IMG/VR virus record: IMGVR_UViG_3300014613_000025
Coordinates: 9,114-73,113 of that record
Reading direction: 5' to 3' (one strand)
Origin: a virus
Lineage: Duplodnaviria > Caudoviricetes
DNA length: 64,000 nucleotides
Of the stretch, positions 23,041 to 36,009 are shown one piece after another; position 1 is the stretch's first letter; each line of letters opens with the position of its first letter. Below the pieces are notes generated by a model that saw nothing but the letters and a program-made list of their open reading frames with translations, was not told the origin of the DNA and did not search any database. Made by a program: the position numbers and the translations under genes.

Positions 23041-23056
23041 TGCAATGCGTGTGCCA
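23041..23056 (-). promoter_or_regulatory. sigma54 promoter 1
   Basis: TGGCACACGCATTGCA; ATG at +6. Confidence 0.8.
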
Positions 23057-23057
23057 A

Positions 23058-23306
23058 TCAGGCCGTGCTTCCCACCAGCCAAAGTTCAACCACGGTCTCA
23101 AGCGCTTCCGTCAATGCCTCGTGCCTCGTTGCCCCTGCGCCGATGATGTCGCCATCAAAGTCCAGTCCTGGGTCCACAACGAAGTAGCGCGGCAACCCTT
23201 CCTTGACGCCATCTGCATCCGTCTCTTGGACGTCGATGGCCGTAACGCCTAGCAGGTTGCAAAGCGCGCATCGGGTGTCGTCGATTGTGTGGGTGTTGTT
23301 CTTCAT
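23058..23306 (-). CDS. Small cassette protein MKNNTH...
   Basis: Own sigma54 promoter; start moved from the ORF track to +6. Confidence 0.65.
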   Translation of the reverse strand: MKNNTHTIDDTRCALCNLLGVTAIDVQETDADGVKEGLPRYFVVDPGLDFDGDIIGAGATRHEALTEALETVVELWLVGSTA

Positions 23307-23321
23307 GGTGCTCTCAGTAGT

Positions 23322-23337
23322 TGCAAGTGCGATGCCA
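23322..23337 (-). promoter_or_regulatory. sigma54 promoter 2
   Basis: TGGCATCGCACTTGCA; ATG at +6. Confidence 0.8.
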
Positions 23338-23340
23338 CAG

Positions 23341-23529
23341 TTACCGGCCACGATAGGGCGAACTTGAGACGGTAGGCCGCTGCCCCCCGCCGTTGTCGTT
23401 GTCATGTGCGGCGGCATACCAGCCCTCGCGTTCGAGGTTCGACTTGGGGTTGTCCAAGTCTTGGATGGCTTCCCACATGACCCACATGACCCAACCGTGG
23501 TGCCTGCGCTCGTTATCCTGATTCGTCAT
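23341..23529 (-). CDS. Small protein MTNQDN...
   Basis: SD AGGAG. Confidence 0.5.
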   Translation of the reverse strand: MTNQDNERRHHGWVMWVMWEAIQDLDNPKSNLEREGWYAAAHDNDNGGGQRPTVSSSPYRGR

Positions 23530-23575
23530 GGCGACTCCTGCCGGGGTCACCGCGACCCCGTTGTGCGGGTTGGGG

Positions 23576-23824
23576 TTATGCGTCGAGTGCGTACTCCGCT
23601 GCGCAAGCGCGGCACATGGTCTGGCCGTCGAGGTATCCGCCTTCGGCACGGACCGGCGACTGGCCCTCTTGCGGTTGCAGGATGCGACCACAAGCGCAGC
23701 GGAACGCGCGGGCGGTTGCACCACGGTAGGCTGAGACCACCGCGTCAGCGTGGGCATCGGCATCGTAGCGGGCTTGGATTTCGGCGTGGGTCGCGTCTCG
23801 GTTGCTGTTGTTTTGGTTCTTCAT
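23576..23824 (-). CDS. Small Zn-ribbon cassette protein MKNQNN...
   Basis: Own sigma54 promoter; CACG...CRAC. Confidence 0.65.
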   Translation of the reverse strand: MKNQNNSNRDATHAEIQARYDADAHADAVVSAYRGATARAFRCACGRILQPQEGQSPVRAEGGYLDGQTMCRACAAEYALDA

Positions 23825-23839
23825 GGTACTCTCAACCTT

Positions 23840-23855
23840 TGCAATGCGTGTGCCA
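23840..23855 (-). promoter_or_regulatory. sigma54 promoter 3
   Basis: TGGCACACGCATTGCA; ATG at +6. Confidence 0.8.
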
Positions 23856-23858
23856 GGT

Positions 23859-24071
23859 TCAGCCGCCCATCTGTTCCGCTGACTCGCGCGCTTCGTTCTC
23901 GGCAGCCGCAAAGCGGAGAGCTTCGGCGACACCCTTCAGCGCGCGCTTGCTGCCCCGGAGTGCTCGTCCACACATCCTGACCTGCGCGTCGTCGCCGAAC
24001 CGGTTGGCCTCGTCGCGGAGTTTGCAGATTTGTTCGTAGGTGGGATTGCTGCTGTTGGTCTTGCTGGTCAT
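23859..24071 (-). CDS. Small protein MTSKTN...
   Basis: Leader AGGAGGACACGAACC-ATG; shares LRDEA/GD..QV..C pattern with 25369-25599. Confidence 0.65.
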   Translation of the reverse strand: MTSKTNSSNPTYEQICKLRDEANRFGDDAQVRMCGRALRGSKRALKGVAEALRFAAAENEARESAEQMGG

Positions 24072-24144
24072 GGTTCGTGTCCTCCTACGGCCTCAGGCCG
24101 GGAACCGCGAAGGCTACCCGGCCGGGGTTGGGGTTGGAGAGAGC

Positions 24145-24336
24145 CTATACGGCTACCGTGTATCCGTTGCGCTTAGCGTGGCGGTTGACGCCTTCGACCC
24201 ATTCCTGAGCCGATTCTTCCGACACGAAGTCCATCGTGCTTTGGATGGTGATGCCTTCGAGGTTGCCAGAGATGAAGGTCTGGGAGAAGGTGAGGGTGTA
24301 GGGGTAGGGGTTGCTGCTGTTGTTTTGGTTTTTCAT
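24145..24336 (-). CDS. Small cassette protein MKNQNN...
   Basis: Own sigma54 promoter. Confidence 0.65.
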   Translation of the reverse strand: MKNQNNSSNPYPYTLTFSQTFISGNLEGITIQSTMDFVSEESAQEWVEGVNRHAKRNGYTVAV

Positions 24337-24351
24337 GGTACCAATTCCTAA

Positions 24352-24367
24352 TGCAAACGCGGTGCCA
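24352..24367 (-). promoter_or_regulatory. sigma54 promoter 4
   Basis: TGGCACCGCGTTTGCA; ATG at +6. Confidence 0.8.
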
Positions 24368-24368
24368 A

Positions 24369-24635
24369 TCAGGCCGGGGTGTGCGCGCGGACGAGAGCAC
24401 GAACCGTGTTTTCGTAGGTTGCCGTGAAAACCCAGATGGCGGCATCGTAATCGCCAGCGAAGGTAGCCTTGGGGAATTCAACCTGAAACGACTGCCAAAG
24501 GCCCATGCTCATATCGGTATCGGGTTCGTCTCCGCTAAAGACGCAGTAGTTTACGTGATCTTCCGCAGCGTCGACTGCGAACTTGATGACGCGAGCGGTT
24601 GTCTTGCCGATGTCGTATTGGGTGATGTTCTTCAT
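24369..24635 (-). CDS. Small cassette protein MKNITQ...
   Basis: Own sigma54 promoter. Confidence 0.65.
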   Translation of the reverse strand: MKNITQYDIGKTTARVIKFAVDAAEDHVNYCVFSGDEPDTDMSMGLWQSFQVEFPKATFAGDYDAAIWVFTATYENTVRALVRAHTPA

Positions 24636-24650
24636 GGTGCCCCCAACCTA

Positions 24651-24666
24651 TGCACTCCGCATGCCA
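24651..24666 (-). promoter_or_regulatory. sigma54 promoter 5
   Basis: TGGCATGCGGAGTGCA; ATG at +6. Confidence 0.75.
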
Positions 24667-24732
24667 CGCGCAACCCGAAAGCGTAAACGCCTAGAACGAG
24701 GCTGCGCCGCGCATATCATTGCGCCGCCAGAC

Positions 24733-25124
24733 CACGACTTTGAAGTCAGGGCCATGCAAACTTTGCCGATTCGTCCAAAAGTGTATGGTCACTATTTGGC
24801 CTTGTCCTTAGAAACAAGCGGTATTGCGTTTGGTTGCGCGGATAACAACCATGGCATCCATGTCATGGTGTGCGAAAACGTCGGGGTTTTGGGGGTAACT
24901 TCAGCAGTCCTAATGTTACCGCGAGACGCTACCGGGGCCAGCGCTGACCATGACATCCATGTCATAGCGGATGGCCCCCAAACGCGCGATGCTCGGTAAA
25001 CGTAGGCTAACGTCCCCATGACATCCATGTCATAGCAAACCGGGTCGGCCTTGCCATGCTGCGCGAATACATGCGCAGCGATAGCGTTTTCGCGTTGCAG
25101 GGCGACTATGACATTGATGTCATA
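24733..25124. promoter_or_regulatory. Palindrome cluster A (5 sites, YAYGRC-N6-GTCRTR)
   Basis: Sites at 24733 (imperfect), 24850, 24949, 25017, 25107. Confidence 0.75.
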
Positions 25125-25138
25125 CCCATGAACCATGC

Positions 25139-25372
25139 CTAGAAAACGTCTCTCCGGGTCAACCGCTGGCTTGGTGCTCCACCCTCGCCGCGCAGGGTGG
25201 CCATGATGGCGAGGACATGCGCTATCGTATCGCGAGCCGCTTGTGTCTCGCACACGTCGGGGTCGGACGCTATCGGGGTTATCGCGTTCGCAAGCTCAGC
25301 CGCTAGGTCCGCCGCGTTGAAGGGCCGCTCGCTAGCGATACGCCTAGCGGCGTGGATGCCAACCAGACTCAC
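25139..25372 (-). CDS. Small hypothetical protein
   Basis: GTGA overlap with the upstream gene. Confidence 0.5.
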   Translation of the reverse strand: MSLVGIHAARRIASERPFNAADLAAELANAITPIASDPDVCETQAARDTIAHVLAIMATLRGEGGAPSQRLTRRDVF

Positions 25373-25599
25373 GACGGCCCCGCAGTGCCGCGAGGTTGGC
25401 TGTAGCGGGATTCCGCTACCGCCCCGGCGCAAGCGTCGCGAGCGAACCGTTGGGCCACCTCTGACGGGTAGCTGCCCCCGTCATCGAGGTACACCCCCAA
25501 CGCTATCTCGCATAGCTTCACCTGTTCAGTGTCGCCAGCCATGGCGGCTTCGTTGAGCAAGTCGCCAATCTGTCTGTCCGTCACGTAGTTTGATCCCAT
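25369..25599 (-). CDS. Small protein MGSNYV...
   Basis: SD GAAGGA. Confidence 0.55.
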   Translation of the reverse strand: MGSNYVTDRQIGDLLNEAAMAGDTEQVKLCEIALGVYLDDGGSYPSEVAQRFARDACAGAVAESRYSQPRGTAGPS

Positions 25600-25600
25600 G

Positions 25601-25777
25601 TTATTCGTCCTTCTCGGTTGCTGAGATGGCCTTTGATAGCGCCAGCGCGGTGTGCAGGATGGCGACCTGGACAAGTTCTCTGCCTTCAGCGGTAGACGGT
25701 TCGACCTTGTGTAACGCGTCCAGTGCCTCGTCCAGCGCCGCTAGCGCGGTAGCGTGCGGGGTGTGGTCCGTGGTCAT
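25601..25777 (-). CDS. Small protein MTTDHT...
   Basis: ATGA overlap. Confidence 0.55.
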   Translation of the reverse strand: MTTDHTPHATALAALDEALDALHKVEPSTAEGRELVQVAILHTALALSKAISATEKDE

Positions 25778-25995
25778 GACAGACGGTCCCATCCGCCGTT
25801 GCGCCGCTGGATTTCGACACGACCCCACGCGTCGTCAAAGTAGGGGCGCATGGCGCGAGCGAGCGCACGCTCCGCGCTTGTCACGGACTTGGCGCGCGTC
25901 GCGATGACGTGGCCGACATCGTTACCAGTCTCGCCCACTACCAACCGGAAGGTTGAGCCGTAGGCTTCGTTGGGGTCGTTCTTGTTCGTGGTCAT
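25774..25995 (-). CDS. Small cassette protein MTTNKN...
   Basis: sigma54 promoter plus SD AAGGAG. Confidence 0.65.
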   Translation of the reverse strand: MTTNKNDPNEAYGSTFRLVVGETGNDVGHVIATRAKSVTSAERALARAMRPYFDDAWGRVEIQRRNGGWDRLS

Positions 25996-26022
25996 GTTCG
26001 TGGTCTCCTTGTCTCTCAGCGT

Positions 26023-26038
26023 TGCAAGCGTTACGCCA
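26023..26038 (-). promoter_or_regulatory. sigma54 promoter 6
   Basis: TGGCGTAACGCTTGCA; SD-containing leader. Confidence 0.65.
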
Positions 26039-26357
26039 ACTGCCAACCCTTGGGCAAGTCACACGGCAAGAATTCCGCGTTACCGGCAACGATAACCCCG
26101 ACCGTTGGGCTCGCGACGCAACCGCACGCGCCGTCGCCAAAGGGCGACCCGTCCCACGGCACGACGCTAACGAGGTCAGCACTAGCGTTGTGCGCGCACA
26201 CCTCCGCAACGTCTCGCGACTCGACCATCACACACCACTCGTTCGCGCTTGGTCCTTCCAGGTCGAACCAGATTGCATCATCGCAAGCGAGTCCGTTAGG
26301 GTCTCCGCCGCGAAGGGTGGCGATGTGGAGCGCGCTGGGCTTGGTTGTCGTTGTCAT
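26031..26357 (-). CDS. Cassette protein MTTTTKP...
   Basis: sigma54 promoter plus SD GGAGGA. Confidence 0.65.
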   Translation of the reverse strand: MTTTTKPSALHIATLRGGDPNGLACDDAIWFDLEGPSANEWCVMVESRDVAEVCAHNASADLVSVVPWDGSPFGDGACGCVASPTVGVIVAGNAEFLPCDLPKGWQLA

Positions 26358-26384
26358 GTTCGTATCCTCCTACGCGCCTAAGCC

Positions 26385-26400
26385 TGCAAGGCGTGAGCCA
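26385..26400 (-). promoter_or_regulatory. sigma54 promoter 7
   Basis: TGGCTCACGCCTTGCA; SD-containing leader. Confidence 0.65.
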
Positions 26401-26426
26401 AGCAGGCGAAGCGGTGTGGGTTGTGG

Positions 26427-26990
26427 TTAGAAATTGTAATCGTAGTACTTGTGCCTCGCTCCGATGGTAACGCGTTCCGTGCTGCGCGACACTCGCCAAG
26501 TGCCATCCTTGCGGAGCGTGGCCTTGGTGGTGGGGCCATCCAAGTCTCGTTCGTAGGAGTAGCGCTGGACGCCTTCAGTATGGCCGAAGAACCCACCAGG
26601 TGTGAACGTCAACGCGTCAGGTTCGCCGGAATTGAAGCCGTTGAGCAGGGTGGCCTTGTCGCGCTGCAACGTGATTGTCTTGCCGTTAGCCGACACGGCG
26701 ATGACGGTTTGGGGAGTGGAGTCGCTGTAGTGGTGAATGGTGGCACCGTCACCAACCGCAGGCTTGTTCCGCGCCAACCGCATGGCCTTAGTGAACGAAC
26801 CTCCGCAATCACAGACAATATTTCGGACGTCCAATACTGATGGGGTGCGCCCGTGGCGCTCCATGGTAGCGACGATGATTTCGCGCAGCGAAGCGGTAGC
26901 GATTGACGGGTATGTCCAGCGCAGTAGGTAGTCCTCGCACAGTTCGTCAACGCGCTCGTTCTGGGTGTCGGTCAAGGTTGTCGTTGTCAT
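26427..26990 (-). CDS. Cassette protein MTTTTLT... (187 aa)
   Basis: sigma54 promoter plus SD GGAGGA. Confidence 0.7.
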   Translation of the reverse strand: MTTTTLTDTQNERVDELCEDYLLRWTYPSIATASLREIIVATMERHGRTPSVLDVRNIVCDCGGSFTKAMRLARNKPAVGDGATIHHYSDSTPQTVIAVSANGKTITLQRDKATLLNGFNSGEPDALTFTPGGFFGHTEGVQRYSYERDLDGPTTKATLRKDGTWRVSRSTERVTIGARHKYYDYNF

Positions 26991-27017
26991 TGTCGTTGTC
27001 CTCCTACGCGTTACCTT

Positions 27018-27033
27018 TGCAATTCTAGTGCCA
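27018..27033 (-). promoter_or_regulatory. sigma54 promoter 8
   Basis: TGGCACTAGAATTGCA; SD-containing leader. Confidence 0.8.
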
Positions 27034-27036
27034 CCG

Positions 27037-27258
27037 CTACGCCCTAGCCAAGAATCCTTTGCGGATTGCCAGGTACGCTTGCGACTGTTCGTTGCGGCCA
27101 TGCTTCGCACACGTTGCAGCCATACGGCCAGCGGCATCGGCAGCCATCATGGCGGCATCAACCGAGCCGTTGTAGCGGGCGAGTGCAAAGACCTTGGCTG
27201 CGCGGGTTGGCGTCAAGGAGCCGCTCAGTATCTCTTTGATTTGGTCGATGTAGTTCAT
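27037..27258 (-). CDS. Cassette protein MNYIDQ...
   Basis: Own sigma54 promoter. Confidence 0.65.
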   Translation of the reverse strand: MNYIDQIKEILSGSLTPTRAAKVFALARYNGSVDAAMMAADAAGRMAATCAKHGRNEQSQAYLAIRKGFLARA

Positions 27259-27271
27259 GACATCTTACCTT

Positions 27272-27287
27272 TGCAATCCTCGCGCCA
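27272..27287 (-). promoter_or_regulatory. sigma54 promoter 9
   Basis: TGGCGCGAGGATTGCA; ATG at +4. Confidence 0.75.
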
Positions 27288-27288
27288 A

Positions 27289-27477
27289 CTAGCGCCCGGT
27301 GTGCCTGAGATACCAGCGGACCGCGCCCGATTGAGTCTTGAACGTCTTGCTGACGGTAAACGTCATGGCGAGCCAAGTGCCGTCCGGTTGCGCGAAAACG
27401 CCGCTCGACAGGCTCTCGTTGTTGCCCATGTCAAGGGTCCGGTTCGTTACGGTCGGGGTTGTCGTTGTGGTCTTCAT
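27289..27477 (-). CDS. Cassette protein MKTTTT...
   Basis: Own sigma54 promoter. Confidence 0.65.
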   Translation of the reverse strand: MKTTTTTPTVTNRTLDMGNNESLSSGVFAQPDGTWLAMTFTVSKTFKTQSGAVRWYLRHTGR

Positions 27478-27492
27478 GATGCTTTCCTTCGG

Positions 27493-27508
27493 TGCAAACC
27501 TGATGCCA
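27493..27508 (-). promoter_or_regulatory. sigma54 promoter 10
   Basis: TGGCATCAGGTTTGCA; ATG at +6. Confidence 0.8.
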
Positions 27509-27512
27509 ACCG

Positions 27513-27749
27513 CTACACTTCGACGATGACGCAATCGCCATTGTCGATGGCGCGCACGAAGCTGGCGGTAGCACTGTTGGCCCAATACGAGCCGCAGTTT
27601 TCGAGGTAGCGCGAGAACACGCCAGCAAGTTGGGCAGACCTGAAAGTCTTGCGTGCGCGCTTGCCATTGATGGGGTCCGTGTAGCGGACCGTGGTGCGTC
27701 CGGTACGGGTTGTCGTGGTCTCGATGTCGGCGTTGTATTGAGTCGTCAT
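27513..27749 (-). CDS. Cassette protein MTTQYN...
   Basis: Own sigma54 promoter. Confidence 0.65.
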   Translation of the reverse strand: MTTQYNADIETTTTRTGRTTVRYTDPINGKRARKTFRSAQLAGVFSRYLENCGSYWANSATASFVRAIDNGDCVIVEV

Positions 27750-27764
27750 GATGCTTGTTCCTTA

Positions 27765-27780
27765 TGCGAGCGGCGTGCCA
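27765..27780 (-). promoter_or_regulatory. sigma54 promoter 11
   Basis: TGGCACGCCGCTCGCA; ATG at +6. Confidence 0.75.
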
Positions 27781-27781
27781 A

Positions 27782-28072
27782 TCACTCCCACGAACCGTTA
27801 CGCGTTCGGGTCAAGCCAACGGAGCGGCGGATGCCGTTGCTCGCGCGAGCCCTGGCGTTACGTGCGTTCCGCGCCTTGTCCTGCGTTGCCGCTTCGGTGC
27901 GTGCGCAAGTGCGTCCAGACTCGGTCAACGAAAGGTAATCGGCGTCGAATACGTCGCCTTCTGCGAGGCCGTAGGCCACAAGTGCGCCGAGAGTCTCCCA
28001 TCCGCATCGCGGGGTCTGGTTGAGGTAGAGGGCCAGGAGTGCATCGCGCTGGGTTCTGGTGAGCTTATTCAT
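27782..28072 (-). CDS. Cassette protein MNKLTR...
   Basis: Own sigma54 promoter. Confidence 0.65.
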   Translation of the reverse strand: MNKLTRTQRDALLALYLNQTPRCGWETLGALVAYGLAEGDVFDADYLSLTESGRTCARTEAATQDKARNARNARARASNGIRRSVGLTRTRNGSWE

Positions 28073-28085
28073 GGGAGATTCCTTA

Positions 28086-28101
28086 TGCGATACTTGTGCC
28101 A
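28086..28101 (-). promoter_or_regulatory. sigma54 promoter 12
   Basis: TGGCACAAGTATCGCA; ATG at +4. Confidence 0.75.
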
Positions 28102-28107
28102 AGTGGT

Positions 28108-28497
28108 CTAGCCGTTGTGGCGATGGCCGCTGCCGTTGCAACGGTAGCAGCAACCGCCGTTAATGTGGCGGTACTCAGGCAGCACACCAGTCCCACCACA
28201 GCGCGGGCACTTGGCGGCTTCGCGCTCTGCGTTGGCGACTGCTGCCTGAACCTGGTAAAGCGCATCCAAGCGCGTTTCCGTGGCGGAATCCATGGCCTTA
28301 GAGGTGGTCGCCATCAACAGGGCCAGCGGGTCGAAGGGTGCGGATGCATCGTAGGAGGCGTCAAGCGTCGGAGCGAAAGCAGCGCGAATCTCGGCGATAC
28401 GGTCGGCGATGGCATCGGAACCGGTTGCGATTGCCATTAGGTCAGCAACCACTTCGTCGTCGAGTGCGAGGAGGGCGGTGTTTTCGTTGGCGTTCAT
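28108..28497 (-). CDS. Cassette protein with C-terminal CxxCxGxG zinc finger
   Basis: CPRCGGTG...CYRCNGSG; own sigma54 promoter. Confidence 0.7.
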   Translation of the reverse strand: MNANENTALLALDDEVVADLMAIATGSDAIADRIAEIRAAFAPTLDASYDASAPFDPLALLMATTSKAMDSATETRLDALYQVQAAVANAEREAAKCPRCGGTGVLPEYRHINGGCCYRCNGSGHRHNG

Positions 28498-28512
28498 GAT
28501 GATAATTCCTAA

Positions 28513-28528
28513 TGCTAGATGCGTGCCA
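28513..28528 (-). promoter_or_regulatory. sigma54 promoter 13
   Basis: TGGCACGCATCTAGCA; ATG at +6. Confidence 0.75.
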
Positions 28529-28534
28529 ACTTGG

Positions 28535-28744
28535 CTAGCGAGCGCGGCGAGTCTTGCGAGTGGGCATCGTCAATTCGATATCGTCCACCGTGAGGGTATT
28601 GACGGCCTTGGTGGTATTGAGCCAGCGGACGCAGCGGTCGCACATGCAACGCCCCGCATCTTCGGAATCCATAAAGCAGACGTTGGTTCCGTAGGTGGGG
28701 TGGTTGGTGTCGATGGTAACGTTGGCGTGTTCTGCGTTCGTCAT
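28535..28744 (-). CDS. Cassette protein MTNAEH...
   Basis: Own sigma54 promoter; CMCDRC. Confidence 0.6.
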   Translation of the reverse strand: MTNAEHANVTIDTNHPTYGTNVCFMDSEDAGRCMCDRCVRWLNTTKAVNTLTVDDIELTMPTRKTRRAR

Positions 28745-28759
28745 GGTGCTTCGACACAA

Positions 28760-28775
28760 TGCAACAGCGATGCCA
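28760..28775 (-). promoter_or_regulatory. sigma54 promoter 14
   Basis: TGGCATCGCTGTTGCA; ATG at +6. Confidence 0.8.
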
Positions 28776-28867
28776 ACCAGACAACCTAGCCCAACCGCAT
28801 ATCATTACGCTGGCACTGCACGGAACCACCGATGTTCAGTGCTTTGGCGGGGCTGAAATGTATGGTG

Positions 28868-29335: not shown

Positions 29336-29504
29336 TGTGTGGGATAGCGTGTGGGCTGGTGGCAACCTGTGGGAGCTATTCGTTGACAGCGTGGAATAGT
29401 GCGGCGTTTTGGACGGTGGGCCATTGCTGGGCCAAGGATGGGCCTAGGACGCGTCGGGGTGGCGCCATGGCATCCAAGGCCAACCTGTGGCCGAAAGGGC
29501 CGTC

Positions 29505-29837: not shown

Positions 29838-29846
29838 TATTCCTCC

Positions 29847-30161: not shown

Positions 30162-30176
30162 GATGCTTTCCTGTCT

Positions 30177-30192
30177 TGCACGAGCCGTGCCA
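30177..30192 (-). promoter_or_regulatory. sigma54 promoter 15
   Basis: TGGCACGGCTCGTGCA; ATG at +6. Confidence 0.8.
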
Positions 30193-30474
30193 TCACTTGC
30201 TGGCGAGGTAGGCAACCACTCGGCGCAGGTCGCGTGCGCCAAGGGATCCGAACCTGTCAGCGATCCATCCGCCGTCCGAGTCGCTAACGCTAGCGCTCGT
30301 TCCTTTGCCGCAAGCGGAAGGGGTTACGGTAAGCACTGCGTCAGCCGGAACCTGGCGCACGCGAACCTTGGTCCCCTCGTAGCAACCCGCGTTGACGTAG
30401 GCGAGCGGTTGGCCCCAAAGGGCGGAGCAGAGGTCAGCGGCTGAGACGGTGATGGGGTTGGTGAAGTTCGTCAT
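30193..30474 (-). CDS. Cassette protein MTNFTN...
   Basis: Own sigma54 promoter. Confidence 0.65.
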   Translation of the reverse strand: MTNFTNPITVSAADLCSALWGQPLAYVNAGCYEGTKVRVRQVPADAVLTVTPSACGKGTSASVSDSDGGWIADRFGSLGARDLRRVVAYLASK

Positions 30475-30489
30475 GGTGTTGGTTCTCTT

Positions 30490-30505
30490 TGCACGAGCCG
30501 TGCCA
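30490..30505 (-). promoter_or_regulatory. sigma54 promoter 16
   Basis: TGGCACGGCTCGTGCA (identical to 15); ATG at +6. Confidence 0.8.
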
Positions 30506-30562
30506 CTAACGCAGCATGCCCCGCGTGGCATGCGCCAGCGGGGCGGTTGGCGTGGGTTCTGG

Positions 30563-30790
30563 CTACACGCTCTCGGCCACTTCCTGCAAACGCCGCATCC
30601 AATACGCCTTCTCTTCCCTGCCGCCAATCACCATCTCATTGGCTGCGCGGCAAGCCTCAACGTGCGAGTAAAACCCGCACTCGCCAGCGTTGGGCGCGTT
30701 GGCAACGAGGGAGGCGAATCGGGCCTTGCCAGCAAGGATGCAGCGTTCGGATTTGGCGATCTGGTTGGTGATGTAGGTTGCGGTATTCAT
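30563..30790 (-). CDS. Cassette protein MNTATY...
   Basis: sigma54 promoter plus SD AAGGAG. Confidence 0.65.
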   Translation of the reverse strand: MNTATYITNQIAKSERCILAGKARFASLVANAPNAGECGFYSHVEACRAANEMVIGGREEKAYWMRRLQEVAESV

Positions 30791-30818
30791 GGTTCGTGTT
30801 CTCCTTGCCAGATAGCAA

Positions 30819-30834
30819 TGCACTCCGCGTGCCA
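30819..30834 (-). promoter_or_regulatory. sigma54 promoter 17
   Basis: TGGCACGCGGAGTGCA; SD-containing leader. Confidence 0.75.
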
Positions 30835-30838
30835 ACCG

Positions 30839-31030
30839 CTACCAGTCCTCCAACCACTCGATGGTGGCCCCGTCTTCCAGCAAGGCCCACGGGCGGCCAT
30901 CGTGGTAAACGAGCACGAACCAAAGATGCCACTCGCCGATTTTGTTACACACGTGAGGGCGGCCCATGATGTCGCTGGTTTTGATGTAGTCGGAGCAAGC
31001 GGCTTGGGTCGTGAAGGTCATGGTATTCAT
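30839..31030 (-). CDS. Cassette protein MNTMTF...
   Basis: Own sigma54 promoter. Confidence 0.65.
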   Translation of the reverse strand: MNTMTFTTQAACSDYIKTSDIMGRPHVCNKIGEWHLWFVLVYHDGRPWALLEDGATIEWLEDW

Positions 31031-31045
31031 GGTGCTTGGTTCCTT

Positions 31046-31061
31046 TGCGAGACTCGTGCCA
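31046..31061 (-). promoter_or_regulatory. sigma54 promoter 18
   Basis: TGGCACGAGTCTCGCA; ATG at +6. Confidence 0.75.
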
Positions 31062-31065
31062 ATGT

Positions 31066-31266
31066 CTACGCTATCCTGAGACCTGACACCAGCCTCTGGT
31101 TCGCTCGGCTGTAGGTGGCGGTGCTGACTCGGTCAAGCTCTGCCTTTGCCGCTGCATCGCCAGTCCACGCCTTCGTTGTCTTGTCGAACGCGAATCCGCA
31201 GTCGCGGAGCAGTTTCGCTGCGGGGTAGGTGTTTCCGGTGATGGTGACTGTGTTCTCGTTGTTCAT
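31066..31266 (-). CDS. Cassette protein with GNTY...G..FD..TK.W motif (DUF5710/HARP-like)
   Basis: TITGNTYPAAKLLRDCGFAFDKTTKAW. Confidence 0.65.
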   Translation of the reverse strand: MNNENTVTITGNTYPAAKLLRDCGFAFDKTTKAWTGDAAAKAELDRVSTATYSRANQRLVSGLRIA

Positions 31267-31281
31267 GATGACTCTTCCTTA

Positions 31282-31297
31282 TGCACTCAGCGTGCCA
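31282..31297 (-). promoter_or_regulatory. sigma54 promoter 19
   Basis: TGGCACGCTGAGTGCA; ATG at +6. Confidence 0.8.
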
Positions 31298-31298
31298 A

Positions 31299-31466
31299 TC
31301 ATGCCCAGGTTTCGGTGCAGAGTACCTCGAACCCATTGACGCGACCCTTGCTGTCAAGCGATTCGCGCACCAGTCGGCGGACCTTGCGGCAAGTGTTGGT
31401 CTCCCAGAAGCAGCGGTATTCGACGGTCGGGGCCACGGTCGACTTGGTGTTGTTTTGGTTCTTCAT
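31299..31466 (-). CDS. 55-aa cassette protein MKNQNNTK..., not in the ORF track
   Basis: Own sigma54 promoter; TGA abuts the next promoter. Confidence 0.6.
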   Translation of the reverse strand: MKNQNNTKSTVAPTVEYRCFWETNTCRKVRRLVRESLDSKGRVNGFEVLCTETWA

Positions 31467-31481
31467 GGTACAAGTTACCTT

Positions 31482-31497
31482 TGCACGCGTCGTGCCA
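31482..31497 (-). promoter_or_regulatory. sigma54 promoter 20
   Basis: TGGCACGACGCGTGCA; ATG at +6. Confidence 0.8.
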
Positions 31498-31517
31498 GGT
31501 TCAACAAAACTAACCGT

Positions 31518-31784
31518 TCAGCATCCCCAGATCCAGATCTGGTAAGTGTTCAGATTGCCGTGTTCATGCAGATATTCGAGCGCATCGGCGAAGTCTTCGC
31601 GCGTCCAATCGAGCACGCGGATCGCTATCGATTCGTTCGAATAGCGCGGCTTGCGCGTTAGCATCTTTCCGTAGTCGTCGAGGTTCCACTCACCTCCCCT
31701 GGCTCCTCGTTCCAACAACGCACGCAAGCCACGGGGGGTAAAAGCCCAGTAGTGATCGTACTGCTGAACGTATATTCTAGACAT
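31518..31784 (-). CDS. Hypothetical protein MSRIYV...
   Basis: SD AAGGA; overlaps the upstream ORF. Confidence 0.6.
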   Translation of the reverse strand: MSRIYVQQYDHYWAFTPRGLRALLERGARGGEWNLDDYGKMLTRKPRYSNESIAIRVLDWTREDFADALEYLHEHGNLNTYQIWIWGC

Positions 31785-31941
31785 TGCAGCTATCTTCCTT
31801 GTCCAACCTAAGTTCCGTCGCTACGATCCTGCGAATGTAGGCTTCAATTTGGTCCCGCGATGCCATCCCAGGAATCCCTAGCCGCGTGGCTATCGTGCGG
31901 CGATCTTCGTCAGTTACCTCGACCAAAACTCGAATTTTCAT
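31777..31941 (-). CDS. Small protein MKIRVL...
   Basis: SD GGGGGG. Confidence 0.5.
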   Translation of the reverse strand: MKIRVLVEVTDEDRRTIATRLGIPGMASRDQIEAYIRRIVATELRLDKEDSCNV

Positions 31942-31949
31942 GTCCCCCC

Positions 31950-32231
31950 CTACGCTCGGCAAAGGTGGACCCAGATCGACTTGATCGTCCACGTCCCATA
32001 GTCGGCATCGTCTACCATGTCCAAGTCGAACATGCGGTCGACCACGGCGTCCGAAACCCGGCGCTCCCACACGGGCCGAGCGGAGTCGAAGATCGACCAC
32101 ATTTTCTCGCCAAGGCCCGGCCTCATCAGAGTGACGGTCCCAGTACACTCCGCGAGGGCCTTTCGCAATCCGGCGGGTAGGCGAGCGGGGTTGTTGTCTG
32201 TGCCCGCGGTGCGCTTGCTCGTGCTCTTCAT
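31950..32231 (-). CDS. Cassette protein MKSTSK...
   Basis: sigma54 promoter plus AGGAGGACACGAACC leader. Confidence 0.65.
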   Translation of the reverse strand: MKSTSKRTAGTDNNPARLPAGLRKALAECTGTVTLMRPGLGEKMWSIFDSARPVWERRVSDAVVDRMFDLDMVDDADYGTWTIKSIWVHLCRA

Positions 32232-32258
32232 GGTTCGTGTCCTCCTGCTTGTTATCAT

Positions 32259-32274
32259 TGCATTCAGCGTGCCA
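32259..32274 (-). promoter_or_regulatory. sigma54 promoter 21
   Basis: TGGCACGCTGAATGCA; SD-containing leader. Confidence 0.75.
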
Positions 32275-32275
32275 A

Positions 32276-32533
32276 TCACTCCCCGCAGAATCCGTCGTCG
32301 CATAGACAAGCCGTTGCGTTGCCTTTCGCCCAATCCTTGGCCGCCGTCAAGGCTCGGAACCACTTGCTCTTACCATTGTCCAGGCACACTTCGTATTCGG
32401 TCCCATGGATTTGGCTTACAAGCACCGTGATTGTTCCCTCGCTATTCCCATCGATGGCGACGTCAATCCGTGCGCTTCCGTCCCAGTTGGTGACCTTGTC
32501 TCCGAACGTGACCTTGTTTGTTTGAGTCTTCAT
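32276..32533 (-). CDS. Cassette protein MKTQTN...
   Basis: Own sigma54 promoter. Confidence 0.65.
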   Translation of the reverse strand: MKTQTNKVTFGDKVTNWDGSARIDVAIDGNSEGTITVLVSQIHGTEYEVCLDNGKSKWFRALTAAKDWAKGNATACLCDDGFCGE

Positions 32534-32548
32534 GGTACAAGTTACCTT

Positions 32549-32564
32549 TGCAGGACGTGTGCCA
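32549..32564 (-). promoter_or_regulatory. sigma54 promoter 22
   Basis: TGGCACACGTCCTGCA; ATG at +6. Confidence 0.75.
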
Positions 32565-32574
32565 ACCTGACGGC

Positions 32575-32784
32575 TCACTCGAATTCGGCGAACAGGTCAG
32601 GTTCGCCATCGGCGTCCACCGGGCGACCCTGGGCGACCCAATCGGCCTTGAATGCAGCGTGGCAAGCGGCAACGCGAGCGGATTCCGCTGCATCCGCGCG
32701 TCGCTCCTTAGCGGTGCGGTAGTAGTTCGCGGGGTTGCTGATGTAGGCGTGGACGTCTGCGAAGCTGGTTTGGTTGTTGTTCAT
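32575..32784 (-). CDS. Cassette protein MNNNQT...
   Basis: Own sigma54 promoter. Confidence 0.65.
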   Translation of the reverse strand: MNNNQTSFADVHAYISNPANYYRTAKERRADAAESARVAACHAAFKADWVAQGRPVDADGEPDLFAEFE

Positions 32785-32799
32785 GGTGCAATCCTACCT

Positions 32800-32815
32800 A
32801 GCACGCACTGTGCCA
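32800..32815 (-). promoter_or_regulatory. sigma54 promoter 23
   Basis: TGGCACAGTGCGTGCT; ATG at +6. Confidence 0.75.
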
Positions 32816-32883
32816 ATACCCCAACGACACCGCGAAGCGCTACGTCTACCGACGAAAGCGCGTTCCACTGAGTGGATTCATAC

Positions 32884-33309
32884 CACGACTTTCAAGTCGT
32901 GCCTGTGCAAAGTTTGCCGGTTTGGCCAAAAACGTATGGTCACTGTTCCGCGATACGCTATGAAACAAGGGTTAGCGTAACTTGCGCACACCTGAACACC
33001 GCACGACTTTCAAGTCGTGGTGTTGCTGGCATGCCTTGTTTTGTGGCGTTTGGCAAAGGGTACAAGTAATGCTGGTACCCTTGGGGCCACGGCCCGCAAC
33101 GGTGTGTGCGCTTGGTAGGACATGTGCGCTTGCCATGGCGTCAATGTCATACTGAACAAGCCAAACCGCACGACTTGCCGTAACCTGTAGGCTTTAGCCA
33201 CCACGACTTCGATGTCATGCTGAACAAGCCCCAATGGTGCACGGTTGTTGTGTTTGGCTTTAGTTGTGCGGATATCGTGGTAGGCGGCGGGTATGGCGTG
33301 GATGTCGTG
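32884..33309. promoter_or_regulatory. Palindrome cluster C (5 sites)
   Basis: Sites at 32884, 33002, 33134, 33202, 33292. Confidence 0.75.
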
Positions 33310-33328
33310 GTGGGTGTGCGTTCAGTGT

Positions 33329-33778
33329 CTAACCGACGATGCGCAACCCGGCATCGGCGACCATGGCCCGCACGATGTCAAGCGGAAGGTTGACCACCGC
33401 GACGCACCAGCCGTATCCGTAGCGCGTACGGCCCTCGTATTCATCGAAGCCAATCCGGCGCAGGGCGCGGATAGCAACGCCACGAGACGTCGCCTCAACC
33501 TCATATTCCCCAGCGGTATCCTGGTGGCTCAACTTGGTCGCAAGCGCACGGACTGCCTTGCGTGTCGAGTCGTCTCCGGTCAAGGTCGCGAGGCAATCGC
33601 CACCCATGGGACCGTGCGAGGTCAGGAAGACGTTGCCAATCCTCGCGCCGCAGCACACGCATGAGATGTTGGCAAAGGTTCCGCCAAGCGCTTCCAGGGC
33701 CGCTGGCGAGCCAGCAACCGCGAATCCTTCGAGGGCCACGCCGTCAAACTTGTCGCGGATCTTCTGGGTAAGTCGCAT
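33329..33778 (-). CDS. Zn-ribbon hypothetical protein downstream of the tRNA-like RNA
   Basis: SD GAGGGAG; CVCCG...GGDC. Confidence 0.65.
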   Translation of the reverse strand: MRLTQKIRDKFDGVALEGFAVAGSPAALEALGGTFANISCVCCGARIGNVFLTSHGPMGGDCLATLTGDDSTRKAVRALATKLSHQDTAGEYEVEATSRGVAIRALRRIGFDEYEGRTRYGYGWCVAVVNLPLDIVRAMVADAGLRIVG

Positions 33779-33804
33779 CGTCGTCTCCCTCTTCTCGTTG
33801 TCCT

Positions 33805-33889
33805 TGGTCGCAACCGTTGGAGTCGAACCAACCTTATACCACAATCACCCTGGTGGGCGCTCGCCGGAGCCTTTTCGTTGTGGGCTGCG
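33805..33889 (-). ncRNA. 85-nt tRNA-like RNA (acceptor stem, T arm and CCA; non-canonical core)
   Basis: CGCAGCC/GGTTGCG-A-CCA; GTTGG-TTCGACT-CCAAC; begins at +5 of sigma54 promoter 24. Confidence 0.75.
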
Positions 33890-33903
33890 ATGCTTGGTGA
33901 GTA

Positions 33904-33919
33904 TGCGAACGGCGTGCCA
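33904..33919 (-). promoter_or_regulatory. sigma54 promoter 24 (drives the tRNA-like RNA)
   Basis: TGGCACGCCGTTCGCA. Confidence 0.75.
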
Positions 33920-33921
33920 AG

Positions 33922-34113
33922 CTATGCGGCACGCTGGCTTTCCAACAGCGCTAGCCGCCAATACGCGGCCTCAAGCCGCTCGCCCACACGGAGGCCGTGC
34001 CAGGTGTGGGTTACGCCAGCGAACCGCCTATTGTTTAGGTCGCGAATCTCGACCTTGAGGTCAAGGATGCGACGTTGGATAAGCTCAGGAGTCATGCGGG
34101 TTGTGTTCGTCAT
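33922..34113 (-). CDS. Cassette protein MTNTTR...
   Basis: Own sigma54 promoter. Confidence 0.65.
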   Translation of the reverse strand: MTNTTRMTPELIQRRILDLKVEIRDLNNRRFAGVTHTWHGLRVGERLEAAYWRLALLESQRAA

Positions 34114-34126
34114 GGCTCTACTCCCA

Positions 34127-34142
34127 TGCACTCAGCGTGCCA
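34127..34142 (-). promoter_or_regulatory. sigma54 promoter 25
   Basis: TGGCACGCTGAGTGCA (identical to 19); ATG at +4. Confidence 0.8.
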
Positions 34143-34147
34143 AGCGC

Positions 34148-34411
34148 TCAGCGCGTTACCCTGAACCCCTGCGAGGTTGCGTTCAGGTAGACGTTCTCGG
34201 CGGCGATGCGGCAGTTGTTGCGGTGCGTTTCGGCATCGAGCAGAGCTTGCGGCCACTGCTCAGGTACACCGGCGCAGATCGTAGCGTACCGCAGCGCATT
34301 GTATGCGTGAATGGCCTTATCGTAGGCTTTCGTCGCCTTGTTCATGGCAACCTTGGCAGCGCGCGCGGTCGGGAAGGTCTTGGTCTCGGCGGGGTTGGCT
34401 TGGTTCGTCAT
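34148..34411 (-). CDS. Cassette protein MTNQAN...
   Basis: Own sigma54 promoter. Confidence 0.65.
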   Translation of the reverse strand: MTNQANPAETKTFPTARAAKVAMNKATKAYDKAIHAYNALRYATICAGVPEQWPQALLDAETHRNNCRIAAENVYLNATSQGFRVTR

Positions 34412-34426
34412 GGTGCAAACCCACTA

Positions 34427-34442
34427 TGCACGCACCATGCCA
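34427..34442 (-). promoter_or_regulatory. sigma54 promoter 26
   Basis: TGGCATGGTGCGTGCA; ATG at +6. Confidence 0.75.
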
Positions 34443-34509
34443 CGCAACACAAAAACGCGAAACGTCTACTCCCACAGGGACAACGTTGTTACACTAAGTA
34501 GATTCACAC

Positions 34510-34911
34510 CATGGCATTCAAGTCGTGCTATTGCAAAAGTTGCGTGATTGACCCAAAAGTGTATGGTCATTCCAAACGCGTCCTCAACGTTTCCGACATG
34601 TTGCGCGCCTAGTGAGTCATTCTTGACCCATGGCAAAACGGTCCTGGTCTGCACGAAGTGTCTTGTTTTGTAGCGGTTTGCGAAACGTGGCGGGCTAGGT
34701 CTGCCAGGTGTCGGGTTGTCGCGGCGAGACGATAGCCAACGGCCTACCATGACAGCGGTGTCATAGCAAAACGTCACATTAGCGAATCCTTCGAGGTTTA
34801 CGCTATGACATTGAAGTCATAGCATCGAGGTCCAAGACGGCTACGATGTGCTGGCGTGGCTTGTTCTGTAGCGATTGAGGTACGCGTGGCGGGTATGACA
34901 TTGATGTCATA
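34510..34911. promoter_or_regulatory. Palindrome cluster D (5 sites)
   Basis: Sites at 34510, 34629 (imperfect), 34748, 34804, 34894. Confidence 0.75.
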
Positions 34912-35191
34912 GGGTCTTGGCGGAGCGAAGGATTCGCGACGAAAGCGAGGTCAGCGCGTCACGGACCTTGCCGTCGCCATCGTCGTCCGCGCTATTGACG
35001 GCGTCAATTAGTCGCGACCATGCGGCTTCCTCTGCTCCCTCGTTGACGTGTAGCACGCCTGCGGCATGGTCGAACGTGCCAGGAAACGGCTCGTAGTCGC
35101 CGTCAAAGGCCAGGCAATCGTCAAACGCGGGGTCGAATACATAGATGGTCAACCCGCACGCCTGAATCTCGCCTACGCGGAATGTCGCCAT
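34907..35191 (-). CDS. Hypothetical protein MATFRV...
   Basis: TGATG coupling to the upstream gene; its stop lies inside a palindrome. Confidence 0.6.
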   Translation of the reverse strand: MATFRVGEIQACGLTIYVFDPAFDDCLAFDGDYEPFPGTFDHAAGVLHVNEGAEEAAWSRLIDAVNSADDDGDGKVRDALTSLSSRILRSAKTL

Positions 35192-35406
35192 CAGATGCCG
35201 CGACGCGCGCGCTCCTTTTGGAACAAGGACAATTCGGTGAGGTATCTTTCGCCGCCCATGCGCTGAACCCAGCTATTCGTGGCGGTAACGGTGAGCAGTC
35301 CTTCAAGAGCGAGGGAGCAGTCGCGATGCGACCACACCAGCTCGGAGTCACTCATCTTGCGGATGCGGTCGGCGATGCGCTTGGTTGCCTTGTCGGTGTT
35401 CTTCAT
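35191..35406 (-). CDS. Cassette protein MKNTDK...
   Basis: Own sigma54 promoter. Confidence 0.65.
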   Translation of the reverse strand: MKNTDKATKRIADRIRKMSDSELVWSHRDCSLALEGLLTVTATNSWVQRMGGERYLTELSLFQKERARRGI

Positions 35407-35421
35407 GGTGCTTTCCGAGTA

Positions 35422-35437
35422 TGCGAACGCTATGCCA
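35422..35437 (-). promoter_or_regulatory. sigma54 promoter 27
   Basis: TGGCATAGCGTTCGCA; ATG at +6. Confidence 0.75.
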
Positions 35438-35479
35438 TCGTTGCCGTAGCCTCAAAACCGCCAGGCTCGACACCCAAGC

Positions 35480-35641
35480 CATGACACGAATGTCATACCT
35501 AAACGCCGTTTCGCGATATTCGTGAGGTTTTCGCTATGACATTGGTGTCATGCTTAGGCGAGCGGTTGTCGGCTCGCTTCGCAATGTGCCTTTATTTGTA
35601 GCGATTATGCGCGGAGCGGGTGGTATGACATTGGTGTCATG
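35480..35641. promoter_or_regulatory. Palindrome cluster E (3 sites)
   Basis: Sites at 35480, 35535, 35624. Confidence 0.75.
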
Positions 35642-35652
35642 GCAGGCTGTGG

Positions 35653-35892
35653 TCATGCGTACATGGCGGCGTTCAAGGCCAGCCACGCTGCATCCACATG
35701 CGCGTTCAAGGTCTTGGCGTAGAGCCAGCGCGCCATGTTCACAGCCTTGCGGCTAGGCTTGCGGCTGCTGCTAGTGACGCACTGGATCCTGATCTCACCC
35801 AGGCAATCACAGGCGAACAAGTAGCCCCCGACTGTAACCGTCATGGGTGCGCCGCTGCCGTCCGAGTAGACTTCGATTGCTGTGGTTTTCAT
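35653..35892 (-). CDS. Cassette protein MKTTAI...
   Basis: Own sigma54 promoter. Confidence 0.6.
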   Translation of the reverse strand: MKTTAIEVYSDGSGAPMTVTVGGYLFACDCLGEIRIQCVTSSSRKPSRKAVNMARWLYAKTLNAHVDAAWLALNAAMYA

Positions 35893-35904
35893 ACCATCCT
35901 GCCT

Positions 35905-35920
35905 AGCACGTCGCATGCCA
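35905..35920 (-). promoter_or_regulatory. sigma54 promoter 28
   Basis: TGGCATGCGACGTGCT; ATG at +3. Confidence 0.7.
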
Positions 35921-35993
35921 ACGGTCCCAAACCCGTCCGCTAGCGCTTGACCATATCTCGCCGTTCCCCTCCAGCGGGAGTGACCCAAACCTG

Positions 35994-36009
35994 TGCACGT
36001 CGCATGCCA
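35994..36009 (-). promoter_or_regulatory. sigma54 promoter 29, outermost in the array
   Basis: TGGCATGCGACGTGCA; followed by SD and MVKR*. Confidence 0.7.

Follow-up and report, generated by a model that had tools for sequence, protein, structure and literature searches.

The sequence analysed here is a 64-kb window of a linear IMG/VR viral record of 73,113 bp (IMGVR_UViG_3300014613_000025; the window covers positions 9,114 to 73,113), which derives from a contractile-tailed phage and is estimated by CheckV to be ~78% complete. Two flanking arms of this genome both lie on the plus strand, and between them is a minus-strand block of ~45 small genes. Within this block, 29 elements match the −24/−12 promoter consensus of the alternative sigma factor sigma-54 (RpoN), and they are probably promoters for the sigma-54 RNA polymerase (RNAP) of the host. 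The genes of the block have a gene-like GC content at third codon positions (GC3, 0.7-0.8), the gene calls of the ENA and JGI pipelines, made independently, agree on its cassettes, and its proteins are almost all ORFans. Since identical DNA (100%) was assembled from at least three further samples, the block is no assembly artefact; the same complete identity leaves these other assemblies without comparative variation. Domain searches found no DNA-binding domain (helix-turn-helix or regulator) in the proteins of the region. The 62-aa protein of one cassette (27289-27477, minus strand) is a clear member of DUF1391 (E = 3e-23), a family known chiefly from enterobacterial prophages and hence odd in an uncultured phage of 58% GC.

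Promoter-like elements of the minus-strand block

The sequence-only reading had reported 29 co-oriented minus-strand matches to TGGC-N9-GCW within 13 kb, each with the exact GG-N10-GC spacing, and all 29 of these were upheld. We found that the loose pattern matches the window 63 times, compared with 31.4 ± 5.3 in shuffled sequences (0 of 100 shuffles reached the observed count), and that 36 of the 63 matches lie on the minus strand inside 23041-36009. The remaining matches are scattered (13 on the minus and 14 on the plus strand, two of the latter inside the region), and seven of the 36 appear chance-like (23081, 25361, 26498, 27130, 29197, 31162 and 35463). Enrichment over the rest of the genome, when checked on both strands, was confirmed with the strict pattern TGGCAY-N6-TGCW, whose 20 matches all lie on the minus strand of the region; the 73,113-bp genome has no others on either strand.

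All 29 sites fit TGGCAY-N5-(T/G)TGCA on the minus strand between 23041 and 36009, with the GG-N10-GC spacing exact in 29 of 29, and their logo reads T-TGGCA(C/T)-G-N4-(T/G)TGCA-W. On the −24 side, T precedes TGG in 66% of sites, and TGGC is followed by A (85%), C or T (97%) and then G (53%); on the −12 side, GC is preceded by T or G (90%) and T (76%) and followed by A (89%). The form of the sigma-54 motif printed for E. coli sites, weakly conserved flanks included, agrees with this logo (PMC4591121). The earlier assignment to the RpoN consensus is borne out beyond the core (Y before TGG, G after CAC, T/G-T before GC and W after it), so that, on sequence comparison, the sites match the extended sigma-54 consensus Y-TGGCAC-G-N4-TTGCW at its degenerate positions as well as in its core. 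Because the two blocks lie one helical turn apart, they do not fit the −35/−10 geometry of sigma-70-family factors.

Every site had been claimed to head an open reading frame (ORF), a minigene or an RNA. This holds for 26 ORFs of 55-187 aa, with the ATG 12-28 nt downstream, for a 6-codon minigene (23056) and for a candidate structured RNA (33919), whereas the site at 36009 heads nothing. Stop codons directly abut the −24 box (TGA-T-TGGCAC) at 23058, 24369, 27782, 31299 and 32276, as described before. The spacers and flanks vary from site to site, and no paralogues were found among 40 proteins of the region at E ≤ 1e-3, which argues that the sites did not arise by duplication of a single cassette and have been kept independently at unrelated genes. 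Sigma-70-like promoters occur in the block at chance level (6 versus 5.2 expected), no upstream promoter for a 14-kb block transcript was found, and there are no minus-strand terminators between the cassettes, terminators not being enriched.

The spacing between the GCA of the element and the start codon is quantised: it is exactly 15 nt at 18 sites, 12-13 nt at four and 27-28 nt at five. The 15-nt spacing leaves no space for a Shine-Dalgarno (SD) sequence, and a third block is conserved in this class, GYAYC-ATG-A (with G in 15 of 18, A and C each in 18 of 18, and A after the ATG in 18 of 18), in which A13 and C15 of the spacer are invariant and the conserved G is spacer nt 11; the first ~8 codons that follow are A/C-rich. 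The 27-28-nt class has AGGAGG or AAGGAG beginning at spacer nt 13-15. As the plus-strand genes of the phage often have GGAGG, the lack of an SD is specific to the 15-nt cassettes. According to a rule derived from E. coli ChIP-seq, sigma-54 transcription starts 19 bp downstream of the motif centre (PMC4591121), and this rule, applied here, falls on spacer nt 11, the G conserved in 15 of the 18 members of the 15-nt class, while in the 27-28-nt class the SD begins 2-4 nt past the predicted start point. A start at spacer nt 11 would make sense of both spacing classes, with either the ATG at +6 or an SD from +3 to +5. The ORF-less promoter 33919 retains the 15-nt spacer with its GCATC end, and this retention suggests that the GYAYC block belongs to initiation and not to translation. 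The candidate tRNA-like RNA downstream of it (Table 1) has a fold that is not significant (z = −0.88) and no match in Rfam or by ARAGORN.

Table 1. Features of the minus-strand block, in window coordinates unless a contig is named; promoters are cited in the text by their higher coordinate, and spacing classes refer to the distance from GCA to ATG
Feature	Coordinates	Strand	Description
Block of ~45 small genes	21734..36009	-	ORF map, GC3, ENA/JGI gene calls
Promoter array	23041..36009	-	within the block; tail genes without promoters reach down to 21734 (DUF4942)
Sigma-54-type site	35994..36009	-	no ORF; ~89-bp duplicate of site 35920
Sigma-54-type promoter	35905..35920	-	ATG at 12 nt; 79-aa ORF 35892-35653
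Palindrome cluster A	35481..35640		3 exact sites, centres 52-196 bp upstream of GG of promoter 35437
Sigma-54-type promoter	35422..35437	-	15-nt class; 71-aa ORF then coupled 94-aa ORF
Palindrome cluster B	34749..34910		3 exact sites, 315-461 bp upstream of promoter 34442
Sigma-54-type promoter	34427..34442	-	15-nt class; 87-aa ORF
Sigma-54-type promoter	34127..34142	-	13-nt spacing; 63-aa ORF
Sigma-54-type promoter	33904..33919	-	no ORF; 15-nt spacer ending GCATC, into candidate structured RNA
Candidate tRNA-like RNA	33805..33889	-	acceptor-like stem, T-arm-like hairpin GGUUCGACUCC, ACCA end
Palindrome cluster C	33135..33218		2 degenerate sites (1 mismatch each), 328-396 bp upstream of promoter 32815
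Sigma-54-type promoter	32800..32815	-	15-nt class; 69-aa ORF
Sigma-54-type promoter	32549..32564	-	15-nt class; 85-aa ORF
Sigma-54-type promoter	32259..32274	-	27-nt class, AGGAGG; 93-aa ORF from 32231
Sigma-54-type promoter	31482..31497	-	15-nt class; 55-aa ORF
Sigma-54-type promoter	31282..31297	-	15-nt class; 66-aa ORF
Sigma-54-type promoter	31046..31061	-	15-nt class; 63-aa ORF
Sigma-54-type promoter	30819..30834	-	28-nt class, AAGGAG; 75-aa ORF
Sigma-54-type promoter	30490..30505	-	15-nt class; 93-aa ORF
Sigma-54-type promoter	30177..30192	-	15-nt class; 104-aa ORF (56% orthologue in L209, same promoter and spacing)
Palindrome cluster D	28890..29330		5 sites (3 exact), 123-548 bp upstream of promoter 28775; non-coding by GC3
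Sigma-54-type promoter	28760..28775	-	15-nt class; 69-aa ORF
Sigma-54-type promoter	28513..28528	-	15-nt class; 129-aa ORF
Sigma-54-type promoter	28086..28101	-	13-nt spacing; 96-aa ORF
Sigma-54-type promoter	27765..27780	-	15-nt class; 78-aa ORF
Sigma-54-type promoter	27493..27508	-	15-nt class; 62-aa ORF (DUF1391)
Sigma-54-type promoter	27272..27287	-	13-nt spacing; 73-aa ORF
Sigma-54-type promoter	27018..27033	-	27-nt class, AGGAGG; 187-aa ORF
Sigma-54-type promoter	26385..26400	-	27-nt class, AGGAGG; 108-aa ORF
Sigma-54-type promoter	26023..26038	-	27-nt class, AAGGAG; 73-aa ORF then coupled promoter-less ORFs
Palindrome cluster E	24851..25123		4 sites (3 exact), 193-450 bp upstream of promoter 24666; non-coding by GC3
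Sigma-54-type promoter	24651..24666	-	15-nt class; 88-aa ORF
Sigma-54-type promoter	24352..24367	-	15-nt class; 63-aa ORF
Sigma-54-type promoter	23840..23855	-	15-nt class; 82-aa ORF
Sigma-54-type promoter	23322..23337	-	15-nt class; 82-aa ORF
Sigma-54-type promoter	23041..23056	-	15-nt class; 6-codon minigene, then promoter-less ORFs 23000-21734
Palindrome of ATGACA-N4-TGTCAT type			TATGACATTGATGTCATA
TTGATYC-N14-17-CGTA elements	L212:9940-10000, 12245-12305, 13430-13491, 16390-16445; L222:5920-5983, 7565-7627		in related contigs

Palindrome clusters, related contigs and genome context

The exact palindrome ATGACA-N4-TGTCAT occurs 12 times in the genome, always in the promoter region, and with up to one mismatch there are 17 copies, which form five clusters (at 35.6-35.5, 34.9-34.7, 33.2, 29.3-28.9 and 25.1-24.9 kb). 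Each cluster is non-coding (GC3 0.56-0.60) and heads a run of two to nine promoters. The spacings between palindromes (55, 56, 68, 89-91, 99-100 and 144 bp, and 43-44 bp in the related contig L209) are phased at 11.2 bp (R = 0.86; 0 of 2000 random sets were as high), and for the first promoter past clusters A, D and E the nearest palindromes are 52-213 bp away. Dyad-symmetric, multicopy and on one helix face, the clusters are a plausible, if putative, enhancer component. Among 401 genomes of the phylum Myxococcota, each has 0-4 copies of the palindrome except G404, which has 17; we rejected this genome as a host or regulon, as its palindrome lies within a ~150-bp dispersed repeat and its sigma-54 motifs are at control level. 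The repeat (L214-L221) has conserved flanks, often lies at contig ends in the manner of a miniature inverted-repeat transposable element or repetitive extragenic palindrome, and has only the palindrome core in common with the phage sites.

In one scan of metagenomes for all three blocks of the pattern, 77 loci came up, most of them with the seeded site alone. In L209, L205, L211/L148/L170 and L175, by comparison, there are 2-4 co-oriented sites of the design per 1.7-2.6 kb each, in DNA of ~60% GC without nucleotide similarity to the window. L209 encodes a 56% orthologue (E = 8e-40) of the 104-aa cassette protein of the window, with the same promoter and 15-nt leader, and when the two are aligned as nucleotides, conservation runs longest through the two boxes and the start context. 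It also has five copies of the palindrome, centred 72/116/159 and 73/117 bp upstream of two promoters, a placement that by its distances is classical enhancer geometry, and in L205 a single copy lies 129 bp upstream of a promoter. No longer contig of the L209 lineage is on record.

Orthologues of the 104-aa protein at 65% (L222-L224) and 57% (L212) are without the sigma-54 motif and are preceded by a two-block element of the type TTGATYC-N14-17-CGTA, which ends 5-8 nt before the ATG and looks like a −35/−10-like promoter class that would give truly leaderless mRNAs. A different element in the same slot of orthologues points to a promoter slot with a leaderless design, in which the promoter class varies by lineage. 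Distant copies of the protein in L213 (41%) and in the 485-kb phage LR745208 (52%) have no such promoter motif nearby. L212, an 80-kb relative without sigma-54 motifs, encodes a 285-aa response-regulator receiver-domain protein (L212:1-81, minus strand) beside its small-gene block. Megablast against cultured phages gave no relatives, and in IMG/VR the three-block pattern had four single, chance-like matches and the L209-type pattern none. Arrays were also absent from the terminase relatives in IMG/VR (≤42%), named genomes (≤52%), big databases (59-71%) and cultured phages (≤41%); terminase relatives up to 71%, prophage-like loci and cultured phages are at background, with about one match to a position weight matrix (PWM) of the sites per 20-40 kb.

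The sequence-only reading saw neither rpoN nor a bacterial enhancer-binding protein (bEBP) in the window. We extended this search to the 73-kb contig and a further 9.6 kb (82.7 kb together), and found that rpoN, a bEBP and a phage RNAP are all lacking there; PF00158, PF04552 and PF00940 are absent from the 73-kb contig. The 9.6-kb extension past the window end, taken from a second assembly, holds only baseplate and fibre (tail) genes, and a Walker A/GAFTGA screen over the 82.7 kb returned DnaB, the terminase, a Sak4-like ATPase and chance matches, and nothing else. There is no ORF of more than 731 aa and no RNAP domain in the phage, features by which a giant virion RNAP (vRNAP) of the N4 type would be recognised. 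A phage AAA+ protein with a bEBP-like structure is proposed in a 2026 preprint. Among named genomes, the best terminase matches come from Myxococcota metagenome-assembled genomes (44-52% identity), which makes this phylum a candidate host clade; one rpoN and 51-73 bEBP genes were counted in each of the four Myxococcota genomes that hold the nearest terminase relatives, a count to be read with the weakness of the host assignment. Searches of cultured phages gave no pointer to a host.

The left arm encodes primase, DnaB, radical-SAM enzymes, a methyltransferase and RNA ligase, and the 9 kb of the contig beyond the window add a single-stranded DNA-binding protein, a PD-(D/E)XK nuclease, a Sak4-like ATPase, a helicase and a methylase. 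A tRNA-Thr(CGU) gene (11182-11259, plus strand; ARAGORN; Rfam 42.8 bits) lies in this replication/modification arm, its neighbours being the radical-SAM, methyltransferase and RNA-ligase genes (13085-19378). The right arm, with terminase, Mu-like portal, capsid-protease, sheath, tape measure and baseplate hub genes, opens with a NeuB/cytidylyltransferase/Maf-like sugar cluster, a nonulosonic-acid pathway at 36647-41121 (plus strand) that comprises a cytidylyltransferase(-HAD), a NeuB synthase and a 627-aa Maf/MptE-like transferase amid ordinary phage ORFs. A second motif, CCTAAAC(G/C)YRT, is enriched (15 matches with up to 1 mismatch versus 4.1 expected), and its exact plus-strand copies lie just 5' of plus-strand operons (11126-11136, 13062-13072, 15778-15788, 18104-18114, 36029-36039 and 39183-39193), which suggests a separate promoter or regulatory class of the two plus-strand arms. 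At the head of the array (35905-36009, minus strand), the promoter is duplicated in tandem over ~89 bp (identical TGGCATGCGACGTGC) and overlaps reverse-complement near-copies of the CCTAAAC-type motif, possibly forming a divergent control region. The assembly of the phage in ENA sample ERZ27247121 breaks into two contigs at 36544-36573, exactly at the divergent junction of the minus-strand block and the plus-strand right arm, which could be a genome end or a variable junction.

A sigma-54 reading and its rivals

We consider it probable that the 29 elements are host sigma-54 promoters that need an enhancer-bound activator and give near-leaderless mRNAs. With about one RpoN-type −24/−12 promoter per gene, the block would draw host sigma-54 RNAP to small accessory genes, which probably act on the host. 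The holoenzyme would bind each TGGCAY-N5-(T/G)TGCA as a closed complex, and an ATP-driven enhancer-binding activator would open these complexes via DNA looping; as the phage has no recognisable activator, this would most likely be a host protein. It would bind the 17 phased palindromes, with each cluster serving a run of up to nine promoters. Transcription would start ~11 nt past the motif, at the conserved G of GYAYC, and 18 cassettes would then have a 5-nt leader, with the ATG at +6 and SD-less translation aided by the A/C-rich first eight codons, while five would have a minimal leader with AGGAGG from +3 to +5. Since there are no terminators between the cassettes, read-through would add to the expression of downstream genes. 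We infer sigma-54 binding, the start site, the activator, the timing of expression and the host from the DNA, and the mechanism as a whole is a deduction of the same kind.

Several observations weigh against this reading. A leader of 5 nt that lacks an SD works inefficiently in model bacteria, and sigma-54 mRNAs are usually long-leadered, unlike those predicted here; past the −12 box, 9-12 nt before the ATG, there is also a weak WAGG, which could serve as a distant SD were the RNA to begin further upstream. For most of the 29 promoters, the closest palindrome on the upstream side is 0.3-3 kb away, compared with the usual 80-200 bp for enhancer sites, and the 401 Myxococcota genomes gave no sign of the palindrome as a regulon signal. 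The 82.7 kb encode no bEBP. As pointers to the host, the terminase relatives reach only 44-52% identity, and NeuB was rejected as uninformative because its homologues level off at 55-58% across Acidobacteriota, Actinomycetota and Gemmatimonadota. Finally, a PWM count at ≥14 bits (29 sites in the region, one outside it at 3347 on the minus strand, and none on the plus strand) is partly circular, the matrix having been trained on the sites that it scores, and the pattern counts therefore serve as the independent test.

There is a minor chance that the array is a private sigma-54 regulon without a classical activator, in which a phage protein, either a cassette ORFan or the product of a gene in the unsequenced part, would bind the palindromes and open or bypass the closed complex. 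If so, the phage would express ~30 near-leaderless genes by way of sigma-54 polymerase while sigma-70 transcription is shut off, by a new non-AAA+ or unrecognisably divergent route of sigma-54 activation. We give an equally small chance to a promoter of another transcription system that resembles the sigma-54 consensus, served by a phage specificity factor (an ORFan or the product of an unsequenced gene) or by an unrecognised polymerase. No activator is encoded, the third block, GYAYC-ATG-A, is in no sigma-54 consensus, and phage-specific promoters often span the start site; relatives fill the slot with another private-looking two-block promoter, and a contig that is only ~78% complete leaves room for such a gene. 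Against this, the match to sigma-54 (Y-TGGCAC-G, T/G-T-GC-W and the spacing in 29 of 29) is too detailed for coincidence, no RNAP or sigma gene was detected, and boxes one helical turn apart are unsuited to sigma-70-family factors, so that a private factor mimicking the sigma-54 consensus is possible but unparsimonious. Hairpin promoters of the N4 type (5-7 bp hairpin, 3-nt loop) were rejected, given the lack of covariation between the boxes and of a giant vRNAP gene. A slim chance, a little below these, goes to a decoy or roadblock, in which the array would soak up sigma-54 RNAP, or the activator via the palindromes, and shut host sigma-54 regulons. The sigma-54 holoenzyme is stable in closed complexes without an activator, and in E. 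coli most sigma-54-bound sites are transcriptionally silent and decoy roles have been discussed (PMC4591121). The phage encodes no activator, and its 29 strong sites in 13 kb, which replication would multiply, compare with 135-250 per E. coli genome. A decoy, however, would require no strand coherence and no constant distance of 15 nt (or an SD-adjusted 27 nt) to the starts of 26 unrelated genes, and, with sigma-70-type promoters not enriched, it would leave those genes without another evident promoter; the promoter and decoy roles are in any case mutually compatible.

The constant distance to the ATG, the weak WAGG as a possible distant SD, the stop codons that abut the motif and the lack of terminators in the block would also suit an RNA element on long polycistronic transcripts, such as a processing site that trims mRNAs to leaderless ones or the site of a translational regulator. 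We hold this to be quite improbable, because the boxes show no covariation beyond that of independent columns and hence no conserved hairpin, two conserved blocks with a free spacer are like a DNA site, the motif is kept at the ORF-less 33919 and the orphan 36009, the slot in relatives holds a clear DNA-type −35/−10-like element, and no upstream promoter was found for the 14-kb transcript. Chance matches or a recently duplicated cassette are scarcely credible. The head copies 36009 and 35920 do form a ~89-bp duplication, but no shuffle of 100 reached the count, the strict motif is found in the region only, the proteins are not paralogous, spacers and flanks differ, and the design recurs in unrelated contigs, which together already refute it.

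Comparison with known systems

Transcription by sigma-54 is the sole bacterial route that is wholly off until an ATPase activator fires, as at the enhancer-dependent promoters glnAp2 with its NtrC sites and pspA with PspF. The elements described here resemble such promoters in the exactly spaced −24 GG and −12 GC, the extended consensus and the lack of a −35/−10 element, and in the phased dyad sites upstream (at 72-159 bp in L209 and at 52-213 bp for three clusters of the window). They differ in number and arrangement, with 29 in 13 kb or one per small gene, in predicted 5-nt leaders instead of long 5' untranslated regions, in having one palindrome cluster for up to nine promoters, out to ~3 kb, and in having neither the sigma factor nor an activator on the same replicon; unlike the bacterial promoters, they are known from sequence alone. 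If the sigma-54 reading is true, infection would be gated by a host signalling protein, which would make the accessory programme of the phage dependent on host state, and enhancers that serve many promoters at kilobase range would test the limits of the looping model. Compact, tight and orthogonal promoter-leader modules for synthetic biology could come from the design.

Leaderless mRNAs are known from lambda cI, transcribed from PRM, and are widespread in Actinomycetota and Deinococcota. The 15-nt cassettes are like them in the absence of an SD, in a start codon ≤5 nt from the predicted 5' end and in A/C-rich downstream codons. Known leaderless mRNAs come from sigma-70-type promoters, as in the relatives L212 and L222, whereas the promoters here are of the sigma-54 type; to our knowledge, the pairing of leaderless mRNAs with sigma-54 promoters has not been described, and sigma-54 transcripts translated without leaders would, if true, be such a pairing.

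Among phages, the use of sigma-54 has hardly been studied, and the only published case that we found is the few promoters of Pseudomonas phage YuA, which is said to have three sigma-54 promoters in its morphogenesis/lysis region (attributed to Ceyssens et al. 2008). YuA depends on sigma-70 as well as on sigma-54, and one sigma-54-like promoter has been re-mapped by cappable-seq (PMC10914365). As is proposed for the present phage, it lacks an RNAP of its own and has part of its transcription carried out via host sigma-54 (PMC10914365). The claim that the architecture was undescribed therefore does not hold for sigma-54 use as such, but it stands for the per-gene, near-leaderless array: in the literature searched, we found no per-gene sigma-54 array, no shared enhancer clusters and no near-leaderless sigma-54 transcripts in a phage. 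In place of a few promoters, there is here a per-gene array in a block of small ORFs, with a fixed leader and palindrome clusters, and the rpoN dependence that is experimental in YuA is here inferred from sequence. The early promoters of phiKZ and the promoter arrays of T7-like phages are alike in having many co-oriented copies of one conserved promoter that head short units (PMC10914365). Those arrays serve phage polymerases with a private consensus, whereas here no phage polymerase was found and the consensus belongs to an alternative sigma factor of the host.

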